Source of the DNA: Squalus acanthias
Taxonomy: Eukaryota
DNA length: 64,000 nucleotides
Reading direction: 5' to 3'
Assembly: GCA_030390025.1 (NCBI GenBank)
Contig: CM059431.1
Span: forward strand, 120,592,001 to 120,656,000
The stretch's first letter is position 1. The number at the start of each line of letters is the position of its first letter. A model generated the notes under the pieces. The model saw nothing but the letters and a program-made list of their open reading frames with translations, was not told the DNA's origin and did not search any database. Both the position numbers and the translations under genes were made by a program. This document shows, piece by piece, positions 4,421-63,765 of the stretch.

Positions 4421-4683
4421 GTTTACGAAGCAAACACATCTGGCTGCCACCTTCTTAACACACCATACACCATCTGTACAATAAACTGTGGGTTCCTATC
4501 ACTCTCACCACCATCATTACAGATGAAAGGCGCCCTGGCACCTCACTGTGACACTTCCATTTCTGGGCACACATAGGCCAACTCTTTGAATCATTGCCAT
4601 CGCATTTCTTTATTACAATTGAAATGACGATGATAATCTTCAATTTGTATTACATCAAAACACCCAAGTGACTAGCTTTGTGA

Positions 4684-10680: not shown

Positions 10681-12853
10681 GAGCTAAATATTCGGGGGCT
10701 TATCGCCACCTGTTACTGGCAAAAAATGGCAAAAAGAGGGCGGCCGCCGTACCCTTGCCAACTGGTGGCAGCTCCTGCGGCATCCTCCATTTTCCCTGGC
10801 CCGGTAGCGCTGCCATTAAGAAGTATCGCTCGGCAAACAAAAATGAGCGAGTTGTGATGTCAGTCGGCATGCAACGCCGACTTATCGTCACCACAGCGAA
10901 CTTCGACCCTAGTGCGAGAGCAGCACTGGGTCCTAAGCACTCCAGGTAAACCCAGCGTGCAGCAGACTCACAGGGGTGCTGTCAGCACCTCATAAAGGGA
11001 CACACACATCTTTCCGGTATTTTTGCTTTTAAACTATTGGACTGGGTATTTTTGATATTACTGAAGTAGTGGCTTGCTGCAGTATAAGCTAAAAGTTTTT
11101 AAGTCTGTAGGGAGTGCTGCTGGATGCTTGCAAGGCCTCGGATGGTAAAGGAAGGCCTCTGAGAAGACAGACAATGCTGCAAATACTCAGCAGGTCAGGT
11201 AACATCTGTGGAGAGAGAAACAGAGTTCACGTCTCAAGTCGAGATGCTACCTGACCTGCTGCGTATTTCCAGCATTTTAAGTTGTCATTTCAGATTTACA
11301 GCATCCGCTCACAGAGGGAAGAGGGAGATGCAGAAGAGGAAGAAACAAAAGAGGAAGAAGCAGTAGAGGAGGAAACAGAAGAGGAGGAAGCAGAAAGGGA
11401 GGAAGCAGAAGAGGAGGAAACAGAAGGAAGGATGCAATCCAGACAGCCCCTTTCTGGCTGGGATATCCGGGATAGAATCATCCACCTGCAGTCCTAGTGA
11501 CCACAACCCCAATTCCCCTTTCAACATTAGTCTCTCTGTTACTGACCATCACAGTGTCCTCTTGGCCACAATACTGAAATAAAAGCTACCACAAAGCAAA
11601 CTTTCCACTCCAAATTTATACATCTATGCATCCAATATGACATCAAGAAATCAACTCATCACCCTTATGCATTCTCTTAGTGAGTGTCTTGTGTGTTCCT
11701 TTCCCTACCTACTGATGTCACACAGTGCTACCACAGTGGCTACAGCATGGAAGGTTGCTGACTTTCAGTGGGGGACTCTGCAAATGGCCTTGCTGGTCAA
11801 CCTTGAGGAGCTGGTGGTTGGGAGTGTGAAATCGATTGACGGTGTTTCTTTTTCTTTTTCTTCCTTTTCACTCTCCTCTCCCTCTTCTTGGGTGGATGCC
11901 AAAAGGAGGATAACATATGAGGATACCAGCATCTTGTATCCTTTCTGCGCTACCGCTGGCCAAGGGCTCAGCCATGCCCCTGCCAAGAATGGCCTGCAGC
12001 ATCTTCTCCAAGGGGGTGAGATGAGGCTAGGAATAGGAGATGTGTCTCGTGATTGGTAGAGATTGTTGGTAGGTGAGTGATTGGCTGGGGAGGGGGGGCG
12101 GGGAGGGTGTCGTGCATTGAGCAGTGTGTGAGGCTAGTGATTCAGTTGGTAGGAGATTGCTTTTGAAGATACATTCACTGACCTTGACCAGTGGTCTGAG
12201 ATCGTGAAGCTTCTTTGGACACTGAGCCAGATGGTGGGGGCGACACTGCTCGTAGTGATGGCCTCGGTGATGTGTTCCCACATCGTTCTTTCTGGAGACG
12301 CTCTTGACCTCTGTGGGTAGAGGACCTCTCTTGCAGTGTTGGGCCCTGTACAAAGCTGGAGCACTGTGTGCGAGACTCTGGGTGCCCCTTCCCTGACTTG
12401 CTGAGCCATTTGTGTTAGTGCTGAAGCATTTTTCCCTATTTTTGAGGTTCGGAAGGAAATTCAGCTTTAATTGCTGAAGCCTCCCATTTGGGATTTCTTT
12501 TTAATGTTAATTTTTTTTTAAAAGGCAGTAAGGGCTGAAAACTGCCTTTTTTCACTTCATTTTGATTTTGATTACTTCTGAATGCATTGCCCTTTTAATT
12601 GCCCACAATTCCTTGCGATCTCCATAGCCTTGCTCTCAGAAGCTGGAACGCCACCTCAGGACGGGAACTTCGACTTCCATGCTTGCAGTAACGCCACCAG
12701 GAGGGCGTTACACAGTAAGTTAGCACTGGGCTAAAAACCTTTAGCCCCCAGCGCAAATTTTTCTCGGGTAGCACTTTGTCCATTTTCAGCGGCCTTTAAC
12801 CCAAGCTGTAGGTGACACCAGCAACTCTCGTGGCGACCACAAATTATTCCCCC
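10681..12853. mobile_element. Internally deleted Harbinger of another subfamily (acidic transposase C-terminus +, Myb -)
   Basis: Imperfect inverted ends (gagctaaatattcg...tcgccac / gtggcgaccacaaattattcccc); Glu-rich transposase tail 11310-11497; Myb remnant MAQQVREGAPRVS...QCPKKLHDL..VK|gtcagt. Confidence 0.7.
11165..11305. mobile_element. Short palindromic Penelope-derived repeat lacking the ribozyme core
   Basis: ~35-bp inverted arms aatgctgcaaatactcagcaggtcaggtaacatct / agatgctacctgacctgctgcgtatttccagcatt; same family as 63629-63765. Confidence 0.7.
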
Positions 12854-25668: not shown

Positions 25669-26813
25669 ATGGGTGGCACTTTGGCTGCCTTCGATTGGAC
25701 CTCAATGAGGAGCAACATGACCAGCACCAGCACCAGCAACCTGCTGGTCACAGACTTGTAGCTGCACAGGAGAGAGGGAAGCAGCAGAGAGGGGAGCAGT
25801 TGGCAGGAGGCACTACCCACGAAACAGGGTCTACAGGCAGAGACTGAGTTTCCTTGACATGTCTGAACATCAGTGCCTCTGGAGGCTCAGGTTGTCATGT
25901 CAGGTGGTGGTAGATATCTGCAGCCTTCTAGAAGAAGACCTGCTCCCTGCTGGACCTGGTGGCCACGTGTTACCAATGGCTCTCAAAGTCACCACCATCC
26001 TCAACATTTTTGCCTCCGGATCCTTCCAAGGTTCTGCCATAGACATAGCCAGGATCTCCCAGTCGGCAGCACAAAAATGCATAAGACAAGTTACTGATGG
26101 TTTGGTTGCCAGAACAGGCAATTATCTCAACTTCACTTGTGATGACACCAGTCAGAATGAACAAGTGATCGGGTTTGCATCTCTGGCTGGGTACCACAGA
26201 TTCAAGGTGTCATCGACTGCACACACATGGCAATCCAAGCACCCCCAGGTCAACCAAGATTATTCATCAGTCGCAAGAGCTTCCACTCCATCAATGTGCA
26301 GCTGGTATGCAACCACAAAAAGATATTTCTGCAGGTGTGCACAAGATTCCTGGGGAGCTGCCACGATGCTTTCATACTGCGGAGGTCCAAGCTCATTGAT
26401 GTCTTTGGACTGCAAGCAGATGTAAGGGGTGGCTGCTAGGTGACAAGGGGATACCCGCTTCAAGCTTGGCTGCTGAAACCCATCAGAAACCCGAACATGA
26501 AGTGCAACATCACTACAATGACTGCTGAATGACCACCAGATGTGTGATCAAACAAGCCATCGTCAGGCTGAAGATGTGCTTCAGGTGCCTAGACAGATCT
26601 GGAGGCATCCTTCAGTACACAGCAGCCAGGGTTTCCAGAATGGTCATGGTTTGCTGCAGTCTGCACGACATTGCGCAGCAGCAAGGCTTGGACCTGCAGG
26701 AGGAACAAGGCGAAGAGCTCAGATTCTCCTCAGACGAGGAGAAGGAAGACGAGGTGGAAGAAGGTGATGAGGGCAATGCACCACCAGCTGCGCACATTGC
26801 TACCCAGGATGTC
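25669..26813 (+). pseudogene. Harbinger DDE transposase, frameshifted
   Basis: [69 protein letters not shown]. Confidence 0.88.
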
Positions 26814-28025
26814 AGGGTTGATGAGGGCAATGCGGTTGACGTGGTGTATATGGACTTTCAAAAGGCGTTTGTTAAAGTGCCACATAATAGGCTTGCCAGC
26901 AAAGTTGAAGTCCATGGAATAAATGGGACAGTAACAGCATGGATACGAAATTGGGTAAGTGACAGGAAACAGAGTAGTGGTGAACAGTTGTTTTTCGGGC
27001 TGGAGGAAGGTATACAGTGATGTTCCCCAGGGGTCGGTACTGGGACCACTGCTTTTCTTGATATATATTAATGACTTGGACTTGGGAGTAAAGGGAACAA
27101 TTTCAAAATTTGCAGATGACACAAAATTTGGAAGTATAGTGAACAGTGAGAAGGATAGTGATAGACTTCAAGAAGACATAGACAGGCTAGTGAAATGGGC
27201 AGACAGGTGGCAGATGAAATTTAACGCAGAAAAGTGCAAAGTGATACATTTTGGTAGGAAGAACGAGGAGAGGCAATATAAACTGAAGGGTACAATCCTA
27301 AAGGGGGTGCATGAACAGAGAGACCTAGGGTATGTGTGCACAAATCATTGAAGGTGGCAGGGCAGGTTGAGACAGTAGTTAAAAAAGTATACGGGATACT
27401 GGGCATCATAAATAGAAGCATAGAGTACAAAAGCGAGGAAGTTATGATGAACCTTTATAAATCACTGGTTCGGCCTCAACTGGAGTATTGTGTCCAATTC
27501 TGGGCACCGCACTTTAGGAAGGATGTGAAGGCCTTACAGAGGGTGCAGAAAAGATTTACGAGAATGATTCCAGGGATGAGGGACTTCAGTTACGAGGATA
27601 GACTAGAGAGGCTGGGGTTGTTCTCCTTAGAGCAGAGGAGGTTGAGACGAGATTTGATAGAGGTATTCAGAATCATGAGTGGTCTGGACAGAGTAGATAG
27701 AGAGAAGCTGTTCCCATTAGCGGAAGGGTCGAGTACCAGAGGGCACAGATTCAAGGTGACTGTCAAAAAAAACAAAGGCTACATGAGGAAAAACATTTTT
27801 ACGCAGCGAGTGGTTAGGATCTGGAATGCACTGCCTGAAAGTGTGGTGGAGGCAGACTCAATCGTGGCTTTCAAAAGGGAATTGGATAAGTACCTGAAGG
27901 AAAAATAATTGCAGGGCTACTGTGAAAGGGCAGGGGGAGTGGGACTAGCTGAAGTGCTCTTGCAGAGAGCTGGCATGGGCTCGACAGGCCGAATGGCCTC
28001 CTTCTGTGCTGTAACCATTCTATGA
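26814..28025 (+). mobile_element. CR1 LINE RT C-terminal half plus 3' UTR
   Basis: [52 protein letters not shown]; 3' ggccgaatggcctcc. Confidence 0.93.
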
Positions 28026-31918: not shown

Positions 31919-32594
31919 TGTAAGATGTTTCCTTTCGGGACATCACAGGTTTAAGATTCTGACCCGAGAACTATAAGTGAGCAACTGACTTTATTGAGAC
32001 GTCAGAGATCTAAGGTTACAATACAATGTCAAAACTAAACTGGTTGCAATACAATGCCCGTCACCACTAACATATGTTGCGGAGAGGATATACATACGAT
32101 CACCCATGGATGGTCAGTTCGTGTTGATTGTAGGTTCTTTGGGCCGACCGACCAAGTCACACCCCTCTTCCGACTGCAGCCCTATCCTCGTAGGCGAGAT
32201 GTCTGGCCAGGCCACCTCTTCTGACTGCAGCAGGTCCTCGCAGGCGAGATGACTGGCCAAACCACGTCTTCCGACTGCAGCCCTATCCTCGTAGACGAGA
32301 TGACTGGCCAGGCCACCTCTTTCGACTGCAGCCCTATCCTCGTAGGCGAGATGACTGGCCAAACCACCTCCTTCCGACTGCAGCCCTATCCTCGTAGGCG
32401 AGATGACTGGCCAGGCCACCTCTTCCGACTGCAGCCCTATCCTCGTAGGTGAGATGACTGGCCAGGCCACCTCTTCCGACTGCAGCCCTATCCTCGTAGG
32501 CGAGATGACTGGCCAAACCACCTCCTTCCGACTGCAGTGAAGTTACCTTTTTAGGCATTGTCTTTTATTCTTCTCGGTAACCCACTCTGTGACA
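31919..32594 (-). mobile_element. LTR-like insert (676 bp) containing a tandem array
   Basis: TG...CA ends; minus-strand AATAAA (tttatt ~31991) near its 3' end; no clear TSD. Confidence 0.45.
32163..32537. repeat. Tandem repeat, ~7.3 x 51 bp
   Basis: Unit cttccgactgcagccctatcctcgtaggcgagatgactggccaggccacct; eight gactgcag occurrences spaced 50-52 bp. Confidence 0.95.
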
Positions 32595-38572: not shown

Positions 38573-38628
38573 TTATAATCAAAGGATATGATAGGGTGTC
38601 CTCTGTCAGACTGAAGAAACTGCAGATA
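38573..38628 (-). CDS. Candidate coding exon (56 bp; YLQFLQSDRGHPIISFDYx)
   Basis: Acceptor ccatttctcttgccag|, donor TAA|gtatgt; phase 0/2 reading is open. Confidence 0.4.
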
Positions 38629-38749
38629 CTGGCAAGAGAAATGGGACAAATCCCCATCCCAACCAGTGTGCCAGGATAAAGTCATTACCAAAATCTGCTT
38701 CAGTGATCTTTTCATCTTAATTCACATGCTTCATCCTCTGGGATTCAGT

Positions 38750-38947
38750 GGGGGGGGGAAATTCAGCTTTGGCAGAGGTGCAACACGGGCGTTAGCTGAT
38801 AGGCCACCCGTTACACGCCCTGCCTGATTTTCCTTTCCATTGACTTCACTGAATATTGCCTGTTATACACCCCACCCAATTTTCCTTGCATTGAAGTCAA
38901 TAAATAACGTCTGTTCTGTGCCCTCGCCGGAGTTGAATTTTGTTTCC
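38750..38947. mobile_element. Small Harbinger-type MITE; similar remnants near 33726-33915 and 35745-35912
   Basis: ggggggaaattcagc...gttgaattttgtttcc ends with internal ccattgacttca / ttgaagtcaat palindrome halves. Confidence 0.5.
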
Positions 38948-39667
38948 ACTTTCTTCTCCAACTCAGAATATCAACGCAAAAGAAATGAAGTTTTAGAAAT
39001 TCTTTGTAACTACTATTTCTAAAGGAGCATTAATCATAGATTCATAGAAATTCATGGCACAGTAGGAGGACATTCGGCCCATCGTGTCTGTGCCGGCCGA
39101 AAAAGAGCTATCCAGCCTTTTCCCACTTTCCAGTTCTTGGTCCACAGCCCTGTAGGTTACGACACTTCAAGTGCATATCCAAGTACTATTTAAACGTGAT
39201 GAGGGTTTCTGCCTCTACCACCCTTTCAGGCAGCGAGTTTCAGACCCCCACCACCTTCTGGGTGAAAAAAGTTCTCCTCAACTCCCCTCTAATCCTTCTA
39301 CCAATTACTTTAAATCAATACCCCTTGATTATTGACCACTCTGCTAAGGGAAATAGGTCCTTCCTATCCACTCTATCTAGACCCATCATAATATTAAACA
39401 CCTCAATAAAGTATTCCCTCAGCCTCCTCTGTTCCAAAGAAAACAATCCCAGCCTATCCTATCTTTCCTCATAGCTAAAATTCTCCAGTCCTCGCAACAT
39501 CCTCGTAAATCTCCTCTGTACCCTCTCTAGGGAAATCACATCTTTCCTGTAATGTGGTGACCGGAACTGTATGCAGTACTCGAGCTGTGGCCTAACTAGT
39601 GTTTTATATATTTCAAAAGTGAGAATTCGCACAACACCAGGTTATAGTCCAACAATTTTATTTGAAA

Positions 39668-39705
39668 TCACAAGCTTTCGGAACTGCTGCCCCTTCGTCA
39701 AGTGA
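39668..39705 (-). ncRNA. Minimal type I hammerhead ribozyme motif with a C3->U change
   Basis: Minus strand tcac-ttgacga-a-ggggc agca gttcc-gaaa-gctt-gtga. Confidence 0.6.
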
Positions 39706-40524
39706 AGTGAAGGAATACGAATCGGCAAAGCATATATAGACAGAGAACAATGCCTGTGTCGAGTACAATCTCAGACGACTACAGTTAATCTATCTGACTG
39801 CCTTTCATCACACCTTGGCAGAGAAACAATCAGGTCAGCCAGGAAGGCACCACATCAAAGACATAGCAAGATACAACTGAGACAATGAGGTGGGGTCACA
39901 GGGGGTCTAATGTGTCAAATGCAGTCTGTATGATTAAAGGGGAGGGACCCTGCGCAGCGCGAACCGGGGCCCAGCTGGGCCCCCAGGGATCGGGAGTGCC
40001 GGCAAAAGAGCCCGGCACTCAAGAGAAGTGCCGGGCTCTTGGAGCGCAGCCGGCACTTCACGGTGGGGGGGCTTCACGGGGGCCAGGGACAGCAACGGGG
40101 GCAGGTGCTGGCAGGCGGCCAGCAACAAAAATGGCCGCCTGCCACCTCCCCTTTAAATATCGCCGCCCCGGCCGCACGTACGCCTCCCTGAACCCGTCGG
40201 ACATAGCGTCTGGCGGTAAATCAGGGGGCGCGACCGAAGATCACGGCCGGGGCGCGAGCGGGGTGCTGCGCACGGCGATGACATCATCGCCGGCGGCGCA
40301 GCGCCACAGGGCGCTACCGGCTGCCGCCGCCGCTAACCTCCCGCTGAATTTTTCGGGAGGCGTGGGCGGCGCTGCGCCCGGGCGTTAGCTGCTTTACGCC
40401 CCATTAGCGCCCTCTTAAGGCGCTAACGGGAGGCCAAAAACTTTAAAATTTTTACTTTTTTTTTTAAACTGGAAATCACATCTTTGAACAAGCCAACGAC
40501 GACTCGAGTCTGGATGACTCTACA

Positions 40525-41446
40525 TCGTGTAGCGTGACATGAACCCAAGATCTTGGTTGAGGCTGTCTTCCTGGTTGCGGAACTTGGCTATCAGTTTCTG
40601 CTCGATGATTTTGCGTTGTCGTGTGTCTCAAAGGCCGCCTTGGAGAAAGCTTACCCGCAGATCCGAGGCTGAATGACCTTGACTGCTGAAGTGTTCCCCG
40701 ACTGGGAGGTAACAATCCTGCCTGGCGATTGTTGCGCGGTGTCCGTTCATACGTTGTCTCAGTGTTTGCATGGTCTCGCCGATGTACCATGCTCCGGGGC
40801 ATCCTTTCCTGCAATGTATGAGGTAGACAACGTTGGCCGAGTCACATGAGTATGTACCATGTACCTGGTGGGTAGTGTCCTCACGTGTGATGATGGTATC
40901 TGTGTTGATGATCTGGCATGTCTTGCAGAGGTTGCCGTGGCATGGTTGTGTGGTGTCGTGGTCGCTGTTATCCTGAAAGCTGGGTCATTTGCTGCGAACG
41001 ATGGTACTTTTGAGGTTAGGCGGCTGTTTGAAGGCGAGTAGTGGAGGCGTGGGGATGGCCTTAGCGAGGTGTTCGTCGTCATCGATGACATGTTGAAGGC
41101 TGCGAAGAACATGGCGTAGTTTCTCCGCTCCGGGGAAGTACTGGACGACGTAGGGTACCCTGTTGGTTGTGTCCCGTTTTCGCCTTCTGAGGAGGTCTAT
41201 GCGATTTTTCGTTGTGGCCCGTCGGAACTGTCGATCGATGAGTCGAGCGTCTGATCCCGTTCTTACGAGGGCGTCTTTCAGCGTCCGTAGGTGTCCATTG
41301 CGTTCCTCCTCGTCTGAGCAGATCCTGTGTATTCGCAGGGCTTGTCCTTAGGGGATGGCTTCTTTAACGTGGTTAGGGTCGAAGCTGGAGAAGTGGAGCA
41401 TCGTGAGGTTGTCCGTGGGCCTGCGGTAGAGTGAAGTGCTGAGGTG
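40525..41446 (-). pseudogene. Penelope RT thumb/linker + GIY-YIG, with stop codons
   Basis: LYRRPTDNLTMLHFSS..P.HVKEAIP*GQALRIHRICS...VPYVVQYFPG...; stops at ~41349 and ~40986. Confidence 0.85.
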
Positions 41447-42076
41447 TTCGGCCAGTACTTCCCCAGAGTGGAGAAACTACGCCATGTTCTTCGCAGCCTT
41501 CAACATGTCATCGATGACGACGAACACCTCGCTAAGGCCATCCCCACACCTCCACTACTCGCCTTCAAACAGCCGCCTAACCTCAAAAGTATAATCGTTT
41601 GCAGCAAATTACCCAGCTTTCAGGATAACAGCGACCACGACACCACACAACCCTGCCACGGCAACCTCTGCAAGACATGCCAGATCATCAACACAGATAC
41701 CATCATCACACGTGAGGACACCACCCACCAGGTACATGGTACATACTCATGTGACTCGGCCAACGTTGTCTACCTCATACATTGCAGGAAAGGATGCACC
41801 GGAGCATGGTACATCGGCGAGACCATGCAGACACTGAGACAACGTATGAACGGACACCACGCAACAATCGCCAGGCAGGATTGTTACCTCCCAGTTGGGG
41901 AACACTTCAGCAGTCAAGGACATTCAGCCTCGGATCTGCGGGTAAGCATTCTCCAAGGCGGCCTTCGAGACACACGACAACGCAAAATCATCGAGCAGAA
42001 ACTGATAGCCAAGTTCCGCAACCATGAGGACGGCCTCAACCGAGATCTTGTGTTCATGTCACGCTACACGACGTAG
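41444..42076 (+). CDS. Penelope GIY-YIG endonuclease region, open 210-aa frame of a 5'-truncated fragment (not a complete gene)
   Basis: CHGNLCKTC Zn-knuckle-like motif; NVVYLIHC...WYIGET..LRQRMNGH...EQKLIAKF...GLNRD. Confidence 0.85.
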   Translation: MFGQYFPRVEKLRHVLRSLQHVIDDDEHLAKAIPTPPLLAFKQPPNLKSIIVCSKLPSFQDNSDHDTTQPCHGNLCKTCQIINTDTIITREDTTHQVHGTYSCDSANVVYLIHCRKGCTGAWYIGETMQTLRQRMNGHHATIARQDCYLPVGEHFSSQGHSASDLRVSILQGGLRDTRQRKIIEQKLIAKFRNHEDGLNRDLVFMSRYTT

Positions 42077-42390
42077 AGTCATCCAGACTCGAGTCGTCGT
42101 TGGCTTGTTCACAGATGTGATTTCCAGTAAAAAAAAGTAAATATTTTAAAGTTTTTGGTTTTCCATACAGACTGCATTTGACACATTAGACCCCCTGTGA
42201 CCCCACCTCATTGTCTCAGTTGTATCTTGCTATGTCTTTGATGTGGTGCCTTCCTGGCTGACCTGATTGTTTCTCTGCCGAGGTGTGATGAAAGGCAGAC
42301 AGATAGATTAACTGTAGTCGTCGGAGATTGTACGCGACACAGGCATTGTTCTCTGTCTATATATGCTTTGCCGATTCGTATTCCTTCACT

Positions 42391-42428
42391 TCACCTGACG
42401 AAGGGGCAGCAGCTCCGAAAGCTTGTGA
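42391..42428 (+). ncRNA. Minimal type I hammerhead ribozyme in the PLE 3' repeat
   Basis: Stem I tcac/gtga; core ctgacga + extra a; stem II ggggc/gctcc; gaaa; loopless palindromic stem III (agct). Confidence 0.8.
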
Positions 42429-43244
42429 TTTCAAATAAAACTGTTGGACTATAACCTGGTGTTGTGCGACTTCTCACTTTTGTCCATCCCAGTCCAACAC
42501 CGGCATCTCCGCATCATTATATATTTCAAGCATAACCTTCTTGCTCTTATATTCTATGCCTCAGCTAATAAACAAAAGTATCCTGTAAGCCTTCTTAACC
42601 ACCTTATCTACCTGTCCTGTTACCTTCAGTGATCAGTGGACATGCACTCCAAGGTCCCTCTGTTCCTCTACACTTCTCAGTATCATACCATTTATTGTGT
42701 ATTCCCTTGCCATGTTAGCCCTCCCCAAATGCATTACCTCACACTTCTCTGGATTGAATTCCATTTGTCACTTTTCTGCCCACCTGACCGGTCCATTGAT
42801 ATCTTCCTGCAGTCTGTAGCTTTCTTCCTCACTATCAACCACATGGCCAATTTTTGTATCATTTGCAAACTTCTTAATCATGCCCCCTACATTGAAGTCT
42901 AAATCATTGATATATACCACAAAAAGCAAGGGTCCCAGTACTGAGCCCTACGGAACCCCACTGGAAACACCCTGCTAGGACTGGATTTTGTCATGGGGGC
43001 GGGCTGGAGGTCGTTGTGTCAGGATCCCGACTCTGATGTAAAGTGGGAAAAAAGTGTGATTTTGCCCTAATTGGGCACTTGATTTCCAGCATGTGGGAAC
43101 CCCTGGCCCAATGAGCCTTTTCATACAGAAACTTGCCACCGATTAGGTCATTAATGCTGCTGGATTTAAGGCCTGCAAGCAGCCTTGCTTCTTTTTCAGC
43201 CTTTCAACTTTGTGACCATTGTTTGAGTGATTCCTTCTGCAAGT

Positions 43245-45222
43245 ATGTCCAGCTCTAGACCAAAGTGTGCACCTAGATTTGATGAGGCCTCCCTCCAAGC
43301 TCTGGTGGAGGGAGCAAGAGCAAACAAGAAGTGCTCTTCCCTTCCTCAGGCAGGAAAAAGCCTCCACAACAGACTAAAGCTGTGTGGCTGCAAGTGGCCC
43401 AGGAGGTCAATGCTATTTCTATGTGCAGCAGAACCTGGCTGCAATGCCGAAAGAGGTTTCATGACCTTCTCCGCACAGGCAAAGGGAGTATTACATTCCC
43501 ATCACCCTCAATCTAATCCCCATTGCTTCTCATCATCACCAGCACTCTGCTTTGTCAACCTCCTGCTGCACATCCCACTTCACCCTTACATCCCTGCACC
43601 CTTACCCATTCCCTCTCTCTCTATGTTCACATTCACTGAACTATTCGGCAATGCAACCCTCACACTCCCTATCACTGTGATGCAATGGGAACAACTTACA
43701 GACAGGGAGGGCTCTTGGTCTTGGCACCTCACTCCATCTTTGTCTCTTTCTAAGCATCTATGCTATGGATTCTGTACACTCACTCCTTCATTCTCACTCA
43801 AACTCCACTTGTCTCCCTCATTGCAGGAAAAGAGAGCCCACAATAAGAGAGAACGGGTAGGGACAGGTGGAGGGCCACCCTCAATAGCCCAGCTCACCAA
43901 TGCAGAGGAGGTGGCCCTGGAGATCATGGGAGTGGAAGACGATGCGCAAGTGCAGGACGGACGGACGGGCGCATCACAGCAAGCTGGTGACAGAATAGTT
44001 TTGCATCTCTCTCATTGACATTGCATGAGTGACTGATAATGATTCTGATGCTCCAATAGATTGACTTATGATCATCTGCACAATTCAATGATGCAGCCTT
44101 TATCTCACATCTCTAACTCTTTCCTTTACTCCCCCACAGGACCATCGAAAGCCCCCGTCCCCACTGTCCAGGAGGAACAGCCTGAGCCTCCAGACTCCTC
44201 AGAGGAAGCTGCAACCTCGGAGGGCGCAGCATCAGCAGAATTCAGCGCACCCAGCACCAGCGCAGACACTCACACCTCGGTGGGACCTTCACGAGATAGA
44301 GTAGTGTTGTCACCTGGTGTATCACAGATCACAAGTGAGCATCAGCAGATGGTGGAGACAGGGACAGCAGTGGTGAGTCCTCGTCGGAAGGCACAGGACT
44401 CTGCCAGCTTAGCTCAGCTGCATGTCGACCCTGTGCCTCCGGGTCCATCCAGAAGGAGAGCGGTGCTGGAGCTCCAGGAACAGGTGCAGAAGTCTCTGGC
44501 AGGTTTTGTCTCCAGGGTCGCTGCGGGAGCGAATGGAGGAGTCCAACACGAACATGAACAGAGCCTTTGTGGAGGCATTGGCACATGAACGCATCACCGC
44601 GGAAAGGATGGCAACCTCCGTGGTAAAGCTGGCTTCCTCCATGGTAAGGCTGGCTACTGTAGAGGAGAGGATGGCTACAGCCATGGAGGAGCTTACTCGC
44701 CAGTGTATTGAAAACATGGTGATTGTTCAGAATAGAATGACATCTCCTGAGGAGCGATGGTCAGCTATTGAGCATAGAAACCAGACCTTCATGGAAGTCC
44801 CCTGGAGTAGAACTTCCAGTGCAGAAGCGGGTCCTCATGGCCCCCCTGAAGGGAAGCAAGGTGCTGTCAAGCCACTTGCTACCTCTGGAGTGGGGCTGAC
44901 CCATGAGAGGGATGCTGGTTGCAGACAACAAGGAAGTGGGGGCTCCTCTCCAAGCGCTTACACGACCATGCCACTGCAAAGCCCTCGGTCAGAGCCCCAC
45001 CAGAGTTCTCACCCAACTGAGATGGTCGTCTGAGCCCCTGCACAGCTGCAGGAGCAGCAGACCGTTGCCGAGCCCTCACAGGCTCGCAACCCCAGAGGAC
45101 GCCCGCTAAAGGTGTCGAGACAGTAGCAGCAAGAAAGCAAGCAAGGGGCCTCCACATCTGCTGAAGCCATAGGGGAAGCACCACGTAGGAGCACACGTCA
45201 GAGGAAGATAAAGCACAAGTAG
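43245..45222 (+). pseudogene. Harbinger Myb/SANT gene, 3 exons (43245-43483, 43827-43986, 44140-45222) with heptad repeats, AT-hook and basic C-terminus
   Basis: MSSSRPKCAPRFDEASLQALVEG...WLQVAQEV...RTWLQCRKRFHDLLR; first donor mutated (gggagt); PRGRPLK; PRRSTRQRKIKHK*; frameshifts and stops. Confidence 0.88.
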
Positions 45223-45481
45223 TCACAAGGGTAGTCACTTGGGTGTTCTGTTGTGTTTATTTTTGAAAAGCCATCAGTGAATTGTGATGATAAACAAATT
45301 TGATGGCAAACTGTTGAAGTTGTAGCCTGTTGTCATTTCAAAAATGGGACTTCCACATTGAGGCCTTAGGGCGACTTGCAATTGTCAGTATGGAGGTCAG
45401 AGTGATAGGAATTTGCAGGTTCTTGTCCATTGTCGATGCTCTGGTAAGAAGGTGCGAGGCAAAAGTGTTTGATTGTGCAGG

Positions 45482-46700
45482 CTAAGCAAATCTGGCCAAG
45501 ATTAGTGCGTCCCTTGCATCCCGGGCAGCAATGTGCTCGCGTGCTGGTGCCGCTGGTAGATGGGCCTCCTCAACCTGTTTGTTTTCAGTGTCCTCCTCCT
45601 CCTCCTCCTCATCTGAGGAGGCTATGCGATCAGCCACTTGTACCTCAGACAGCTGCAAGCCACGATGCTGTGGCATGTTGTGAAGTGCACAGCACACCAC
45701 GACGATTCTGGAGACCCTGGCTGCTGAGTACTGCAGGGATCCACCTGATCTATCAAGGCATCTGAATCGTATCGTCAGCAAGCTGATGGTTTGCTCGATT
45801 ATGGATCTGGTGGAAATGTGGCTGGAGTTGTAGTGCTCCTCAGCGTCGTTGGATGGGCTCCTCAATGGCATCATTATCAACGTCTTCAGGGATTAGCCCT
45901 TGTCTCCAAGTAGCCATCCGAAAAGTTGGTCTGGCAGACTGAAGAGCGGAGGCACACTAGACTGGTGCAGGATGTAGGAATCATGGCAACTGCCAGGGTA
46001 CTTGGTGCAAACATGCAAAATATCCTTATTGTGGTCACGCACCAGCTGCATGTTGGGGGAGTGGAAGCCCTTGCGGTTGACAAAAATACCTGGATTGTGA
46101 TGGGGTGCCGTAAGGGCCACATGTGTGCAGTCAACGACGCCCTGCACCCTTGGAAAGCCTGCCAGATTGGCAAACCCAACCACACGCGCGGTTACACTTG
46201 CTTGATCCTTGGACAAATTGATGTAATTGTGTGCGATGGCAAAGAGGGCATCGGTTACCTGCATGATGCAAGTGTGTGCGGCCGCCTGGGAGATGCCGCT
46301 GATGTCTGCTGTTGATCCCTGGAATGAGCCTGAAGCAAAAAAGTTGAGTGCGGTGGTGACTTTGAGGGCCACTGGTAAAGGGTGTCCACCCGCTCCTCTG
46401 GGCAGATGTCACCCACTACCTCTCGCGAAAGTCTGAGCCTCCCTTGGCACTGCTGCTCAGTCATGTTGAGGTAGCTGATCTTCTGTCTGTAGACCCTGTT
46501 TTGTGGGTATCTCCTGCGCCAACGTGCTTCCATGCGCTGGTGCCTTCTTGCCTGTGCAGCTTCAGGTGGGTGAGCAGCAGCTTGGAGCTCCTGTTGTTGC
46601 TCCTGCAGTTGGTGCTGCTGTTTTCAGGGTTCTGCTGCAGCCATGGCTGGTCTTCGTCCAAATCTGATGTCCAGGAGGAAAGGAAATAAATGGTTCCCGT
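45482..46700 (-). pseudogene. Harbinger (HARBI1-like) DDE transposase, full span but frameshifted, start ATG->ACG
   Basis: [55 protein letters not shown], acidic tail. Confidence 0.92.
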
Positions 46701-47575
46701 GCTTCTGGTATATACCTCAGTTGAGGAAGCGCTCAGTCAATGTGGGGAGAGGGGTTTCCCAGGAGGTCACACTGGAGTTGGGTGTCAGGCTCCAAACTTG
46801 CACAACAATGAGTATGCCTGCTAAAAGTTCCCCCAGACCGGAGACAACAAAGTTCTGCCACCTGCAAATGATCATCGGTGAAAACTCCTTTTTAATGGTG
46901 GAGCTGCAGCTGTTAGTAAGCAATCGACTTGTGAGACCGCCAGGATTAACTGGCGTGTTCCAGAGGAGACGTGCAGCACAGGGAAAATGTCTTAAATTCA
47001 GAAAGGCCTCTCAAAATGGGATTATAGAGGCAATTAACTGGTAGTTAAGGGCCTTAAGGGCCTATTGGAGGCAGGATTGAAACGGGGTCTGAAACCATGA
47101 ATGCGGGAAAATTGCTCGGAGGCGGGATGGAGGCAGGATCGGAGCCGCCCCCATTTTTAGCAATTTTTACAACTCACACACCTCCAATCCCGCCTCCTCG
47201 GGCCTGGCAAAATCGAGCCCCTAGTCTCAAAAACACCCGTCGACCATTATACATTGCTTCCTGCCACGGAGCCAATTTTGGAACCAACTTGACACTTTCC
47301 CTTTGATCCCATGGGTTTTTACTTTTCTGATCAGTCTGTCATGTGGGACCTTGTCAAAATCCTTGCTAAAATCCATGTCGACTACATCAAACGTGCTATC
47401 CTCATCAATCTTCTTGTTACCTCCTCAAAAAATTCAATCAAGTTAGTCAGACACGACCTTCCCTTATCAAATCCATGCTGACTGTCCTTGGTTAATCCGT
47501 GCCTTTCTAAATGACAATTAATACCGTCCCTCAGAATTGTTTCCACCACCAAAGATTGGCTGACTAGCCTGTAAT

Positions 47576-50455
47576 TACATAAGAACATAAGAAATAGGAG
47601 CAGGAGCAGGCCATTCGGCCCTTCAAGCCTGCTCCGCCATTCAATGAGATCATGGCTGATCTTCTGTCTCAACTCCATTCACCAGCCCTATCGCCATATC
47701 CCTTGATGCCCTTACTAGTCAGAAATCTATCGACTTCTGTTTTGAATATACCCAATGACTGAGCCTCCACAACCCTCTGGGGTAGAGAATTCCAAAGATT
47801 CACCACCCTCTGTGTGAAGAAATTTCTTTTCATCTCAGTCCTGAATGGCCTACCCTTTATCCTGAGACTGTGGCCCTGGTTCTAGACTCCCCAGCCAAGG
47901 GAAACATTCTCCCAGCATCCACCCTATCAAGCCCTGTAATAATTTTGTATGCTTCAATGAGATCCCCTCTCATTCTTCTGAATGCAAGAGAATACAGACC
48001 TAGTTTACTCAGTCTCTTCTCATACGACAGTCCCGCCATCCCAGGAATCAATCTCGTGAACCTTTGCTGCACTCCCTCTATGGCAAGTATATCATAGAAA
48101 CATAGAAACATAGAATCTAGGAGCAGGAGTAGGCCATTCGGCCCGTCGAGCCTGCTCCACCATTCAATACGATCATGGCTGATCATCCAAGTCCAGTACC
48201 CTGTCCCTGCTTTAATCCCCACAGTACACATATCCCAACCTACCCCCGTAACCCCACGTATTTAATTCCCCCTAACATATCCTATCCTATCCCCATAACC
48301 CCACATATTTAATCCCCCCCTAACACTAAGGGTCAATTTATCATAGCCAAAACAACCTAACCCGCACATTTCCTTCCTTAGGTAAGGAGACCAAAATTGT
48401 ACACAGTACTCCAGGTGTGGTCTCACCAAGGCCCAGTATAATTGGAGTAAGACTTCTTTACTCCTGTACTCAAATCCTCTTGTAATGAAGGCCAGCATAC
48501 CATTTGCCTTCCTAATGGCTTGCTGCACCTGCACATTCACTTTCAGTGACTCATGTACAAGGACACCCAGGTATTGTGCGCAGTTTTGGTTGCCTTATCT
48601 GAGGAGGATGCAAAGAAACTCCAGTATGATTTGGACAGATTGGGTGAGTGGGCAAATGCATGGCAGATGCAGTAAAATGTGGATAAATGTGAGGTTATCC
48701 ACTTTGGTGGCAAAAGCAGCAAGGCAGATTATCTGAATGGCAATAGATTGGGAAAAGGGGTGGTGCAACGAGACCTGGGTGTCCTTGTGCACCAGTCGCT
48801 GAAGGTAAGCATGCAGGTGCAGCAGGCGGTTAAAGAAGGCAAATGCTATGTTGGCCTTCATAGCGAGAGGAATCGAGTACAGGAGCAGGGATGTCTTGCT
48901 GCAGTTGTACAGGGCCTTGGTGAGACCACACCTTGAGTATTGTGTGCAGTTTTGGTCGCCTTATCTGAGGAAGGATGTTCTTGCCATGGAGGGAGTGCAG
49001 CGAAGATTCACCAGACTGATACCTGGGAAGGCAGGGATGACGTATGGAGAGAGATTGGGTCGATTAGGCTTATACTCGCTAGAGTTTAGAAGAATGAGAG
49101 GGGAGCTCATTGCAACTTATAAAATTCTAACAGGACTAGACAGATTAGATGCAGGAAGGATGTTTCCGATGGAGGGTGAGTCCAGAACCAAGGGTCACAG
49201 TCTAAGGATAAGGGGTAAGCCATTTAGGACTGAGATGAGGAGGAATTTCTTCACCCAGAGAGTGGTGAACCTGTGGAATTCTCTACCACAGAAGGCAGTT
49301 GAGGCCAAATCATTAAATATATTCAAGAAGGAGTTAGATATAGTTCATAAGGCTAAAGGGATCAAGGGATATGGGGAGAAAGCAGGGACAGGGTACTGAA
49401 TTTGAATGATCAGCCATGATCTCATTGAATGGCAGAGCAGGCTTGAAGGGTCGAGTGGCCTACTCCTGCTCCTATCTTCTATGTTTCTATGTTTCTACGA
49501 CCCTTTGAGCATCAGCATTCCCCAATCTTTCACCATTTAGGAAATACTCTGCCTTTCTGTTTTTTCTACCAAAGTGGATAACTTCACATTAATCCACATT
49601 ATATTCCATCTGCCATTTTCTCACTCACTCAGAGTCTGTCGAGATCCCCTTGAAGCCTCTTCATATTCTCTTCGCAACTGACACTCCCACATAGCTTTGT
49701 ACCATCAGCAAATTTGGAAATGTTACATTTAGTCCCCTCATCCAAATCATGGAAATAGATTGTGAATAGCTGGGGCCAAGCACCGATCCTTGCGGTGCTC
49801 CACTAGTCACAGCCTGCCATCCTGAAAAAGGCCCATTTATCCCTACTCTTTGTTTTCTGTCTGTTAACCAATTCTCAATCCATGCTCGTATATTACCCCC
49901 AATTCCATGTGCCCTAATTTTGTTCACCAACCTCTTGTGTGGGACCTTATCGAAGGCCTTCTGAAAATCCAGATACACCACATCTACCGGTTCCCCTTTG
50001 TCTACTCCAGTAGTTACATCCTCAAAGAACTCCAATAGGTTTGTCAAACAGGATTTCCCTTTCATAAATCCATGTTGACTCTGCCCAATCTTACTATTAG
50101 TTTCTAAGTGCACAGTTATTGCATCCTTTATAATAGATTCCAGCATTTTCCCAACTACTGATGTGAGGCTAACAGGTCTGTAGTTCCCCGTTTTCTCTCT
50201 CCCTCCTTTCTTAAATAGCGGGGTTACATTTGCTATCCTCCAATCTGCAGGAACCGTTCCAGAATCTATAGAGTTTTGGAAGATGACAACCAATGCGTCC
50301 ACTATCCCAATGGCCACCTCTTTCAAAACGCTAGGATGTAGGTCATCCGGTCCTTGGGATTTGTCGACTTTTAGTCCCATTAATTTTGCTAGTACTGTTT
50401 TTTTATTAATAATAATTTATTTAAGTTCCTCATTCTCGTCACACCCTTGGTTTTC
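47576..50455 (-). mobile_element. CR1 LINE (RT + 3' UTR) interrupted by a CR1 tail/HE1 fragment (48093-48370) and a plus-strand CR1 (48572-49497)
   Basis: 239-aa RT segment NYRPVSLTS...VYLDFQKAFDKVPH...[10 protein letters not shown]1 tail at 47576. Confidence 0.9.
48572..49497 (+). mobile_element. CR1 3' fragment in opposite orientation to its host
   Basis: 183-aa open C-terminus VRPHLEYCVQFWSP...FFTQRVVNLWNSLP; (tttctatg)n tail. Confidence 0.9.
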
Positions 50456-52546: not shown

Positions 52547-55500
52547 GGGCTGGATTTTACCAGCCCTGAGGAGGCGTGCTACTTGTTAAAATCGCCAAAA
52601 ATGGTGGGCGGGCCCGATCCCCCCTCTGAGCAATTTTCCCAAATGTGTGCTTTTTTACCCCCTTTCTATCCCGCCTCCCAGAGGCGGGATAGGCCCTTAA
52701 GGCCCTTAACAAACACTTTATTGCCTCTATAATCCCATTTTGAGAGGCCTTTCCACTTTTTAGACATTCCCCCCATCCTACACGCCTCGTCTGGAACACG
52801 CCAGGTAATGCTGGTGGCCTCACAAATCGATTGCTTACTCACAGCTGCAGCTCCACCATTACAAAGGAGTTTTCACCAATGATCATTTGCAGGTGGCAGA
52901 ACTTTGTTGTCTCAGGTCTGGGGGAACTTTTAGCAGGCCTACTCATTGTTGTGGAAGTTTGGAGCCTGACACCCACCTCCAGTGTGATCTCCTGGGAAAC
53001 CCCTCTCCCCACCTTGACTAAGCGCTTCCTCAACTGAGGCATATACTAGAAGCACGACGACCGTTTAATTCCATTCCTCCTGGACATCAGATTCGGATGA
53101 AGACCAGCCGCGGCAGCAGCAGAACCATGAGCAACAGCAGCACCAACAGCAGGAGCATCAACAGGAGCGCCAAGCTGCTAGTCACCCACCTGAAGATGCA
53201 CAGGCCAGAAGGCGTCAGCGCGCGACAACATTGCTGCCTGGGATGCAAGGGACGCACTCATCCTGGCCAGATTTGCTTAGCCTGCACAATCAAACACTTT
53301 AGTCTCACTCCTTCTTACCAGAGCATCGACAATGGACAAGAACCTGCGGAATCCTATCACTCTGACCACCATTCTGACAATCGCAAGGCGCCCTAAGCCC
53401 TCAATGTGAAAGTCTCATTTGCGAAATGAAAGGCCACAACTTCAACAGTTTGCCATAAAAACACTTTGTAATACAATCACAATGATGGGTGGTCTAAAAA
53501 CAAAACAACACAGCTGACTACTTGTGCTTTATCTTCCTCTTACGCATGCCCCTACGTGGTGCTTCCCCTGTGGCTTCAGCAGATGTGGAGGCCCCTTGCT
53601 TACTCTCTGCTGCTCCTGTCTTGATGCCTTTGGCGGGCGTCCTCTGGGGTGGCGAACCTGTGAGGGCTTGGCAACAGTCTGCTGCTCCTACGGCTGTGCA
53701 GGGTCTGAGATGCCCATCTCAGTTGGGTGAGGACTCTGGTGGGACTCTGACCGAGGGCTTTGCTGTGGCATGGACGTGTGAGCGCTTGGAGGGGAGTCCC
53801 CACTTCCTTGTTGTCTGCCACCAACATCCCACTCATGGGTCAGCCCCACTTCAGAGTTAGCAAGTGGCTTGACAGCACCTTGCTGCATTGCAGGGGGGCC
53901 ATCAGGACCTGTTTCTGCACTGGAAGTCCTACTCCAGAGGACTTGCATGAAGGTCTGGTTTGTTTGCTCAATAGCTGACCATTGCTCCTCAAGAGATGTC
54001 ATTCTATTCTGAACAATGACCATGTTTTCAATACCCTGGCGACTAAGCTCCTCCATGGACGTAGCCATCCTCTCCTCTACCGTAGCCATCCTCTCCTCTA
54101 CGGTAGCCAGCCTTACCATGGAGTTAGCCATCCTTTACATGGAGGTTGCCATCCTTTCCGCGGTGATGCGTTCATGCGCCAATGCCTCCACAAAGGCTCT
54201 GCTCATGTTCGTGATGGACTCCTCCATGCGCGCCACACTCGCAGCGACCCTGGAGACAGAACCTGCCAGAGACTCCTGCACCTGTTCCTGGAGTTCCAGC
54301 ACTGCTCTCCTTCTGGATGGACCCAGAGGCACAGGGTCGACATGCAGCTGAGCCGAGCTGGCAGAGTCCTGCGCCCTCCGATGAGGACTCTCCACTGCTG
54401 ACCCTGTCTCCACCATCTGCTGATGCTCACTTATGAGCTGTGATACACCAGGTGCCAACACTACTCTATCTCGTGAAGGTCCCACCGAGGTGTGAGTGTC
54501 TGCGCTGGTGCTGGGTGTGCTGAATTCTGCTGACGCTGCACCCTCAGAGGTTGCAGCTTCCTCTGAGGAGTCTGGAGGCTCAGGTTGTTCCTCCTGGATA
54601 GTGGGGACGGGGGCTTCCGATGGTCCTGTGGGGGAGCAAAGGAAAGAGTTAGAGATGTGAGGCCAAGGTTACATGCACATTGAATATTGCAGATGATCAT
54701 AAGTCAATCTGTTAGAGCATCTGAATCATTATCAGTGACTTATGCTATGTCAATGAGAGAGATTCCAAACTATTCTGTCACCAGCTTGCTGTGATGCGCC
54801 CATCTGTCCATCCCCCACTTGTGTATCGCCCTCGATCCTAGCGATTTCTAGGGCCGCCTCCTTCCAGGCGGTGAGCTGGGCTACTGAGAGTGGCCCTCCT
54901 CCTGTCATGGCTCTTTCCCTCTTATTGTGGGCTCTCTTTTCCTGCAATGAGGGACACAAGTGGAGTTTGAGTGAGAATGAAGGAGTGATTGTAGTGAATG
55001 CATAGCATAGATGCTTAGAATGATACAAAGGACCCTCCCGGTGTGTTGTAAGTTGTTGTTGTCATGGCATCACAGTGATAGGGAGTGTGAGGGCTGCATG
55101 GTCGACTAGTTAATTGCATGTGACCATAGAGAGAGAGGGAATGGGTAAGGGTGCAGGGATGTAAGTGTGAAGTGGCATGTGGAGGAAGAGTTTGGCAAAG
55201 CAGAGTGCTGGTGAGGAGAGGCGATGGGGATCATATTGAGGATGATGGGAAAGTCATACTCACTTTTCCAGTGCGGCGAAGGTCATGAAACTCTTCATCC
55301 ATTGCGGCCAGGTTCTGTGGCTCATTGAAATGGAGTTGACCTTCTGGGCCACTTGTAGCCACACAGCTTTTGTCTGCTGGGGTGGCTTTTTTCTCCCCGA
55401 GGAAGGAAACAGCCCCTCCTTATTACAGCTGGCTCTGTGCACCAGAGCTTGGAGAGAGGGCTCATCAAACTGAGAACACACATTTGCTTGATTGTTGACA

Positions 55501-55781
55501 TTTTCCACAATTCAACTCCTTCATATAAATTGCAAAGCCTTTGCAGTCTCCAGAAGAATCAAGGCTGCTTGCAGGCCTTAAATCCAACAGCATTGATGAC
55601 ATCATCGGAGGCGACTTTCTATATGAAAAGGCTCATTGGGCCAGGGGTTCCCACACGCAGGAAATCAATTGCCCAATTAGGGGAAAATCCCACTTTTTCA
55701 ACACATCACTTAGGAGTCGCGGTCCTAACATGATTTCCATCTGACACGCCCCAGCCCGCCCACACAGACAAAATCCAGCCC
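52547..55781. mobile_element. PIF/Harbinger copy 3 (3235 bp): transposase core deleted, Myb gene retained on the minus strand (53518-~55495)
   Basis: Perfect 12-bp TIR GGGCTGGATTTT; degenerate TSD att/aga (from ATA); transposase N- and C-termini fused at ~53215-53225. Confidence 0.92.
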
Positions 55782-63628: not shown

Positions 63629-63765
63629 AGAGTTCTGACGAAGGGCCATCGACCTGAAACGTTAACTCTGTTTCTCTCTCCACAGATGCTGCCTGACCTG
63701 CTGAGTATTTCCAACATTTTCTGTTTTTATTTCAGATTTCCAGCATCCGCAGTATTTTGCTTTTG
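63629..63765 (+). mobile_element. Penelope-derived short repeat with a minimal hammerhead motif (63629-63669)
   Basis: agagtt-ctgacga-agggccatcgacct-gaaa-cgtt-aactct, then cagatgctgcctgacctgctgagtatttcc. Confidence 0.8.

Follow-up and report, generated by a model that had tools for sequence, protein, structure and literature searches.

The DNA analysed here (the window, 64,000 nt in full) contains a head-to-head pair of two 5'-truncated copies of a Penelope-like element (PLE) within an older LINE. In window coordinates, the locus is made up as follows.

39040..39603, minus strand: 3' part of the host LINE, recognised by rejoining it with 42530-42990 and aligning both to 27015-27899
39604..39616: left copy of the target site duplication (TSD); its last 3 nt (39614-39616) also match the element, a 3-nt microhomology
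39617-41447, minus strand: left arm as a whole
39617..39932, minus strand: outer part of the left arm, terminal repeat region without the tail; 8 mismatches in 319 nt against 42164-42482
39673..39706, minus strand: minimal hammerhead motif of the left arm, in which core C3 reads U (39701) and stem II is altered (39683)
39933..40433: GC-rich high-copy repeat fragment of 501 nt, without target duplication and without terminal inverted repeats
40434..41148, minus strand: inner paired part of the left arm, 3' UTR plus endonuclease and linker coding sequence with nonsense changes; 25 mismatches in 711 nt
41149..41447, minus strand: unpaired centre of 299 nt, an extra 5' coding portion of the left arm
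41448-42516, plus strand: right arm as a whole
41448..42482, plus strand: right arm up to the tail, with an open frame at 41453-42073 (linker and endonuclease), 3' UTR and terminal repeat region
42357..42394, plus strand: TATA-like motif and initiator-like TCACT motifs, preceding the hammerhead and assigned by reading the sequence
42390..42428, plus strand: right minimal type-I hammerhead motif, found in full at 42395-42420, with the features listed in the available text of PMC4209133
42483..42516, plus strand: tail of 34 nt, present in the right arm only
42517..42529: right copy of the TSD
42530..42975, minus strand: 5' part of the host LINE, which stops where a Myb/SANT-bearing Harbinger-type element starts near 42976

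An exact 13-nt direct repeat, TTATATATTTCAA, occupies 39604-39616 and 42517-42529, and these are its sole two copies in the window. Of its 13 positions, 12 are A/T, and an exact match of this length at a fixed site has a chance probability of ~3e-8. The sequence-only reading of this DNA had described a palindromic Penelope insertion bracketed by a 13-bp TSD, and this repeat confirms the TSD. Moreover, when the insert is deleted together with one repeat copy, the LINE is rejoined, its alignment to the paralogous LINE at 27015-27899 extends over 886 nt (68.5%, 1 gap) and a single reading frame runs across the insertion site, so the claim that the host LINE reads through without the insert also stands. 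The paralogous frame at 26959-27348 matches Pfam RVT_1 (E=8e-14), and we take the host LINE to be CR1-type, following the label first given to it and its motifs.

Comparison of the arms shows 1,030 paired nucleotides with 33 scattered mismatches, in agreement with the ~1 kb of complementarity first proposed, distributed over three ungapped blocks (41148-40468 with 41448-42128, 40463-40434 with 42129-42158, and 39932-39614 with 42164-42482); a 4-nt indel also separates the arms. The unpaired spacer, estimated before at ~300 bp, measures 299 nt. The minus arm had been described as one piece from 39617 to 41446 and, although the head-to-head order is real, this arm is split by the 501-nt foreign insert, which had been overlooked and which breaks the stem into two helices of ~320 and ~710 bp. 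Neither arm is a plain copy of the other, since the left one reaches 299 nt further at the 5' side and the right one 34 nt further at the 3' side. Both arms are devoid of the reverse-transcriptase core (5' truncation), the left-arm translation holds three internal stops across the whole arm, and the pair is probably an inert relic now.

Both arms carry the endonuclease motif VVYLIHCRKGC...WYIGET and the downstream H residues, with two Cys between GIY and YIG (CCHH), which confirms that the duplicated part takes in the endonuclease region. The Pfam GIY-YIG model matches the left piece with E=0.004, under the Pfam cut-off, and gives no match for the right one. A PLE-type protein from a shark, which contains RVT_1 as well, is 87% identical to the right arm, and the left arm aligns by tblastn to the 643-aa relative P0001 (88% over 306 aa) starting at residue 337, downstream of the RVT_1 core of that protein (183-309). 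Also, a C-x4-C-x2-C linker precedes the GIY-YIG core in both arms and in all four relatives aligned. According to the available text of PMC8557442, a CX2-5CxxC linker is present in Neptune and absent in Penelope/Poseidon; by this motif the element likely belongs to the Neptune clade, and the presence of the linker excludes a Poseidon (Penelope/Poseidon) label. The features of endonuclease-positive PLEs found at the locus are the GIY-YIG/CCHH domain, a terminal repeat with a hammerhead motif, the one-sided 34-nt tail and a TSD around the unit.

A ribozyme motif had been proposed for each end. The right one is complete, with a 4-bp helix I, a CUGACGA core, an extra A, a 5-bp helix II, GAAA and a loop-less palindromic helix III, whereas the left one is damaged at core position 3 and in stem II; in family contigs, the intact letter makes up 99.8% of the depth at both altered sites. 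These assignments were made by manual comparison with the published minimal motif, and an Rfam search returned no hammerhead among 6 chance-level matches up to E=10. When the 142- and 108-nt ends and two 66-nt motifs were folded, helices I and II formed with z-scores of 0.1-0.6, so that folding alone is no evidence for a hammerhead; nor is the core pattern CTGANGA..GAAA alone, with 7 occurrences in the window where 4.9 would be expected. As the two predicted hammerheads lie on opposite strands, one RNA would have only one of them in sense, and in a read-through RNA this motif would be paired with the other arm. The left arm mirrors the TATA- and initiator-like motifs of the right, both sets being predicted to face out of the insertion, and the rotifer pLTR is described with the same TATA/TCACT arrangement in the available part of PMC3846280.

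The foreign insert has a G+C content of 69% and stands in place of 5 nt of the element. It does not fit a non-autonomous DNA transposon (its ends are not inverted copies, 5 nt are lost and there is no duplication). No further copy was found in the window at E<1e-5, and a weak 55-nt likeness links it to the small element at 38765-38822 (score 38; shuffled sequences reach at most 24). Its summed depth is ~5e5-1.9e6 in two DNA runs of organism A, and family contigs extend beyond 39934; in run X10, five contigs cross the insert site with element-like letters in its place. The insert is likely repair filler that was patched later into a break of the left arm. A less likely possibility, which we would still keep in mind, is that it was captured during retrotransposition by a template jump onto another RNA and back. 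The absence of a target duplication agrees with such a capture, as does the separation of the terminal-repeat region from the body, seen also in the spacers of rotifer Pen1_Av (available text of PMC3846280), and the CpG observed/expected ratio of 0.97 in the insert, close to the 0.98 of the inner left arm (0.80 in the whole right arm). On the other hand, capture requires two exact jumps. Moreover, among the 40 of 170 rows listed, the LINE (564 nt) has 18 positions at which more than 75% of the X2 depth is unlike the window, the left arm (1,330 nt) has 16 and the insert (501 nt) has 1, counts that weakly fit a younger insert.

Divergence between the arms is even, with 25 mismatches in 711 nt of the inner part and 8 in 319 nt of the outer part (Fisher p=0.45), and CpG decay, which accounts for 11 of the 33 mismatches, is balanced (5 left, 6 right). 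Gene conversion between the arms was rejected, since mismatches occur in all but one 100-nt bin. The arms were also compared with the family at sites of the paired region where more than 95% of the X2 family depth disagrees with the left-arm letter. Among the 40 of 170 rows listed there are 10 such sites: at 7 the departure is confined to the left arm, at 1 each arm departs with a letter of its own, and at 2 both arms have the same departing letter. The arm-common letter at 39760/42336, a non-CpG transversion, is found in 0 of 113,512 depth units in run X2, and in the genome from which the window comes it could mark a subfamily. Given that each arm has sequence which the other lacks and that the common letter is absent from the family contigs compared, a single integration from a single donor is likely. 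The single integration put forward in the sequence-only reading is thus supported by the one TSD around both arms, the one-sided tail, the even divergence and the common rare letter.

Four of 21 listed runs of public contigs were compared over 38600-41460, a range that ends short of the right target junction. Here, the locus's own junctions are absent among the 15 of 274 joints and the 24 of 3,639 loose ends listed, no listed contig piece spans the compared stretch, and the empty site is not among the listed rows; contigs drop rare variants, so these missing joints are no evidence of absence. In the unique flank, the runs differ from the window at 3 of 229 and 3 of 118 letters, and the contig runs may come from another individual or a sister species. 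The family reaches a summed depth of ~1e6 against 2-17 in the flank. In run X1, 45 family contigs go on past 39614 into tail-like letters, and in organism E, 53 contigs depart at 39630, with ~10 more element-like bases followed by mixed and AT-rich letters, as would be expected if the family as a whole had a tail-less end near 39617. Among the joints listed, two in other family contigs connect opposite strands inside the coding region, and in one contig of another organism the strand switches at 41149, one base off the equivalent of the right-arm start (41148). In view of the two joints, and of the available text of PMC8557442, which gives this as a usual PLE layout, the novelty first attributed to an inverted copy reaching the coding region is not supported: the inverted layout itself is already published for PLEs, and the shark locus adds one case. 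A metagenome scan with a 24-nt end pattern gave 0 matches; another yielded a single distant relative, with 30% identity, among 80 candidate stretches. No paper on shark PLE palindromes was found in a literature search that covered mostly papers free of subscription, and sharks are not mentioned in the available part of a 2026 retrozyme preprint (10.64898/2026.07.22.740005).

The best explanation, which we consider probable, is that one integration made the truncated, Neptune-type head-to-head pair, a relic today, and that the insert was patched in later. The element endonuclease would nick both strands of an AT-rich site in the older LINE, 13 nt apart, and each free 3' end would prime reverse transcription of the element RNA. 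The right arm would begin at the outer start site, with the tail, and the left arm at a start 34 nt inward, without the tail and with a 3-nt primer match. The cDNAs would end after ~1,070 and ~1,335 nt and would then be joined at their 5' ends, probably by a few bases of microhomology, which at the centre is deduced from the D-G codons of the relative protein P0002 and not from DNA. Fill-in would yield the 13-bp duplication, after which the arms would drift ~3% apart and the unrelated high-copy 501-nt piece would be patched into the left-arm break. According to the available text of PMC11167929, AT-rich DNA is nicked on both strands in vitro by the purified Poseidon protein of the anole, which also extends both strands and uses two start sites that bound the tail; from this work we infer, by analogy, the two-nick route for a Neptune-type element. 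The start sites are described there as being without homology to the cut DNA, unlike the left end at this locus, where the 3-nt target match has a chance of ~1 in 64.

A single integration could also have given rise to the inverted arm by self-priming, with cDNA or antisense RNA folding back and being recopied, as put forward for the head-to-head PLE structures of rotifers (available text of PMC3846280). This route likewise predicts one donor, one target duplication and common rare letters. However, it relies on small palindromes at the inverted junction, and none of at least 12 nt is present at 41447/41448; moreover, the arms are out of register by 299 nt in the middle and by 34 nt at their ends, which would require a second jump, and we regard self-priming as improbable. 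Two independent insertions, with a second, oppositely oriented copy against the first one's 5' end, would be in line with the great abundance of the family and with the 3.2% difference between the arms. Nonetheless, the second copy would have to land exactly between the first and its TSD without a duplication of its own, none being seen, and the even CpG decay (5 and 6) together with a letter that both arms carry and all the family depth compared lacks make this very hard to credit. An assembly artefact in the form of a fold-back chimera is the kind of error that inverted PLE structures are known to provoke (available text of PMC8557442), and the locus's own junctions are absent among the public contig rows listed. 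However, scattered mismatches, CpG decay in either arm, an indel, an insert in one arm, a tail in the other and an exact TSD are unlike a read chimera, and an artefact is extremely improbable.

If the locus were transcribed, a read-through RNA would fold back on itself, and it could be supposed that the locus does supply long dsRNA for small-RNA silencing or A-to-I editing of the family, a role that is compatible with the origin by one integration proposed above. Either strand is predicted to form 1,012-1,014 arm-to-arm pairs (~-2,400 kcal/mol), 462 of 970 21-mers are perfectly complementary, and siRNAs of Drosophila have been mapped to the inverted parts of rearranged Penelope copies (available text of PMC3681739). 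However, according to the same text, siRNAs from inverted copies do not silence Penelope efficiently. Moreover, both TATA/initiator-like motifs face out of the palindrome, and the arms gather mismatches and took up the 501-nt insert with no sign of upkeep. Also, the 174 frames scanned contain only transposon Pfam domains and no host-gene domain, in a scan that took in neither exons below 55 codons nor, left of 28000, 98 shorter frames. Such a role is therefore very doubtful. In run X10, RNA by guess, family pieces are present and the depth is zero in 3 of 4 unique-flank bins, which cannot show the locus to be silent. It is also quite unlikely that the family makes head-to-head joins at preferred sites or that whole palindromic dimers are copied as units, as the strand switch at 41149 in the other organism's contig might suggest. 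If true, the family would keep making kilobase hairpins at fixed coding positions, and those landing in transcribed DNA would be its own triggers of dsRNA silencing or editing in a vertebrate. With its 33 letters specific to one arm and its four private junctions, the locus lends itself to tests for read-through RNA, small RNAs and editing, and it would matter more only if the junction sites recur genome-wide or the hairpin is expressed.

The inverted PLE units described in the available text of PMC8557442 and PMC3846280 share with the shark locus a truncated copy with an adjoining inverted truncated copy, head to head, and a tail of 30-40 bp at one end only (34 nt here). Also shared are TATA and TCACT motifs in the terminal repeat, a non-LTR retrotransposon as target and a short TSD around the unit, of 8-10 bp in the rotifer against 13 in the shark. 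The shark locus differs from the inverted PLE units in that ~1 kb is paired, both copies are short, there is no direct upstream pLTR and one arm is split by a 501-nt foreign fragment; moreover, it sits in a genome of shark type. The minimal hammerheads of metazoan PLEs (available text of PMC4209133) have the short helix I, the extra base before helix II, the G10.1-C11.1 pair and the palindromic helix III of the shark motif. Opposite-strand motif pairs lie 100-700 bp apart in that work and 2.7 kb apart in the shark locus, and the left shark motif has U3 with G8 kept instead of the U3-A8 covariant. The rearranged Penelope copies of transformed Drosophila melanogaster (available text of PMC3681739) likewise contain long inverted repeats of the element body with the potential for dsRNA; siRNAs were measured for them, whereas the shark copy is old, mutated and known from DNA alone.

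Finally, PAc, the Poseidon of Anolis carolinensis (available text of PMC11167929), resembles the shark locus in its AT-rich target and in ends ~30-40 nt apart that bound the tail. Further likenesses are a hammerhead adjoining the end and extension on both strands, a mechanism that at the shark locus is deduced from anatomy; a Neptune-type linker and a left start with a 3-nt target match set the shark locus apart. The locus is a clean genomic footprint of a known process and fits the two-start-site, both-strand priming of the lizard Poseidon in vitro. This suggests, by analogy, that in a cartilaginous fish a Neptune-type element is primed in the same way.

Between two exact copies of the 13-mer TTATATATTTCAA, separated by 2,900 nt, an insert at 39604..42529 interrupts a LINE fragment, which the sequence-only reading labelled CR1, a label that agrees with familiar motifs. 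The 13-mer is absent elsewhere in the whole window, and the chance of an exact 13-nt match at a fixed site is ~3e-8. When the flanks are rejoined without the insert and with one 13-mer copy, a single frame runs through the site, and over 886 nt the rejoined LINE aligns, with one gap, to its paralog at 27015-27899; that paralog matches Pfam RVT_1. The target site duplication and the LINE read-through of the sequence-only reading are thus both confirmed. In the same LINE, ~450 nt to the right of the palindrome, starts a Harbinger-type element (42976-47220); another lies in opposite orientation at 52547-55781, both having Myb/SANT and DDE_Tnp_4 (Pfam) and being ~84% alike across 2.6 kb and 0.7 kb. 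A third relative lies at 3309-6501, and 25716-26754 holds a remnant. Also, inverted LINE pieces within 47577-49500 (47577-48093 against 48974-49492, 77%; 48371-48572 against 48773-48975, 82%) form an older, more diverged arrangement.

The insert consists of two 5'-truncated Penelope-like element (PLE) copies joined head-to-head, whose arms pair in three ungapped blocks (681, 30 and 319 nt); the mismatches number 33 (3.2%, K2P 0.033). Its parts are as follows.

39617-41447, minus strand: left arm
39933-40433, within the left arm: unpaired insert, 501 nt, 69% G+C
Centre: unpaired, 299 nt
41448-42516, plus strand: right arm
42483-42516, plus strand: unpaired right-arm extension (tail), 34 nt
Small indels: unpaired, 4 and 5 nt

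The palindrome proposed earlier is borne out by the paired arms and the centre, although the 501-nt insert had been missed. The structure is real and well preserved; judged from the sequence alone, misassembly is unlikely because CpG-type changes are scattered over both arms, the 501-nt insert is on one arm and the tail on the other, and the duplication is exact.

The left arm extends 299 nt further at the 5' end and the right arm 34 nt further at the 3' end; neither is therefore the full template of the other, and the template of both must have exceeded each in length. Along the stem the arms have diverged evenly (25/711 vs 8/319, p=0.45), with CpG decay balanced between them (left 5, right 6). 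Public contigs of four sequencing runs were compared on 38600-41460, the right target junction lying outside that stretch, and the family is very abundant in them, with a summed depth of ~1e6 vs 2-17 in the flank. In unique flank the runs differ from the window at 3/229 and 3/118 letters, possibly reflecting another individual or species. The site comparison covered 40 of 170 rows; among the listed sites of the paired region, ten have >95% of the depth of run X2 unlike the left arm, seven being private to that arm, one different on each arm and two common to both. A transversion common to both arms (39760/42336) has zero depth in runs X2 and X1, a pattern that favours one donor for both arms. 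The 15 joints listed, of 274 from these contigs on 38600-41460, do not include the junctions of the locus itself. The offset ends, even divergence, balanced decay and common rare letter support the single integration first suggested.

The 501-nt insert is high copy: family contigs extend past its left end. Its site is also spanned by contigs of the element that lack it. At this site 5 nt of the element are missing, and a search for terminal inverted repeats and a target duplication found neither. Among the rows listed, near-fixed differences from the family number 18 in 564 nt for the LINE, 16 in 1,330 for the left arm and 1 in 501 for the insert, the order expected for nesting. We consider it rather probable that the insert is later repair filler; capture during retrotransposition, as in rotifer Pen1 spacers, is possible but doubtful, and a transposon trimmed by deletion is improbable. 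The insert is a fragment of a GC-rich repeat with internal hairpins (40006-40040, 40104-40149, 40262-40305), and its left break is where family contigs suggest a short-palindrome centre. A small element at 38750-38940, with a G-run/AAATTCAG start, has in common with the insert's right end a 13-nt motif and a weak likeness. A GC-rich tandem array (unit ~51 nt, ~92% alike) occupies 32164-32537.

Regarding identity, a 643-aa database protein named from a shark shares 87% identity with the right-arm frame, and other sharks give further matches at 76-88% (39 proteins out of 219 candidates, the comparison being confined to longer proteins). The left arm, with three internal stops, corresponds to residues 337-642 of this protein and the right arm to 438-642; hence both are without the reverse-transcriptase core, which in this relative spans residues 183-309 (Pfam). 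A GIY-YIG-type region is encoded in both arms, two cysteines lying between its half-motifs and C-x4-C-x2-C upstream of it, so the duplicated part does include the endonuclease coding region, as had been claimed. The Pfam GIY-YIG model scores below its cut-off on the left piece (E=0.004) and gives no match on the right arm. In passages of PMC8557442, the two cysteines mark canonical endonuclease-positive PLEs, and the C-x4-C-x2-C-type linker is ascribed to Neptune and not to Penelope or Poseidon. Given this clade description and the presence of the linker, we call the element putatively Neptune-type, on motifs rather than a tree. Pieces 73-84% identical to its frame occur in several host proteins annotated in sharks (cytochrome P450, septin 5a, XRCC5, PPP1R12A-like), representing either gene-model contamination or exonisation.

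At the right end, a TATA-like motif is followed by TCACT motifs and a minimal type-I hammerhead motif (4-bp helix I, CUGACGA, extra A, 5-bp helix II, GAAA, loop-less palindromic helix III), the same features as listed for metazoan PLE hammerheads in sections of PMC4209133. It was undetected by an Rfam search, and neither its fold nor the core pattern is above chance by itself; this candidate hammerhead is called from its layout as a whole and from its position. The left motif has T instead of C at core position 3, where C is kept in 99.8% of family depth in the public contigs. Since C3G abolished cleavage in the anole element (experiments excerpted from PMC11167929), this left motif is likely crippled. 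Thus, of the ribozyme motifs proposed for each end, the right is complete and the left has a changed core. The two sit on opposite strands and would be unable to dimerise within one RNA; minimal hammerheads are thought to need a dimer. A second CTGACGA...GAAA motif, of different sequence type (63635-63659), lies within a short repeat whose structure is locally inverted (63649-63750) and which matches 11164-11308; this may be a small insertion, from another family, that bears a hammerhead.

Read-through RNA from either strand is predicted to fold with 1,012-1,014 arm-to-arm pairs, and 462/970 21-mers are perfect between arms, but the element's promoter-like motifs face outward on both arms, and the one RNA-like run among the four compared consists of contigs. 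No host domains were found among 174 frames scanned, a scan that short exons would escape. According to parts of PMC3681739, siRNAs in Drosophila match inverted regions of rearranged Penelope copies and silence inefficiently; the dsRNA/siRNA idea for inverted Penelope copies is already in print. In other copies, the strand changes inside the coding region at 2 of 15 listed joints, in a table giving no polarity:

40703/40824: strand-changing joint, run X1
40649/41149: strand-changing joint, run X12 (organism E)

The latter, at 41149, is one base from the own junction of the locus (right-arm start, 41148 equivalent), which could be a coincidence, the sign of a favoured joining site, or due to a related copy. 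It seems very improbable that join sites recur or that the hairpin is expressed and silences the family.

As outlined in PMC8557442, the usual PLE insertion has an inverted 5'-truncated copy adjoining the 5' end and, at one terminus, a 30-40-bp tail, and rotifer units of this type lie inside 8-10-bp duplications (from portions of PMC3846280). In vitro, a purified Poseidon protein nicks AT-rich DNA on each strand and extends both, reverse transcription starting at two sites bounding the tail (excerpts of PMC11167929). At the present locus, a top-strand nick would prime from the inner site, with a 3-nt match to the primer, yielding the left arm; a bottom-strand nick 13 nt away would prime from the outer site, yielding the right arm with its tail; and the two truncated cDNAs would be joined at their 5' ends, priming and joining being steps that we infer. 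Family-wide ends are supported by 45 contigs of X1, which carry on beyond 39614 with tail-like letters, and by 53 of X12, which depart at 39630, track the element for ~10 bases and then carry mixed letters. The rival reading, a self-priming origin of the inverted arm, depends on small palindromes at the junction, and none of at least 12 nt is found there. One integration of a kind already described is most likely, and the locus has the structure that the two-start-site, both-strand Poseidon mechanism predicts.
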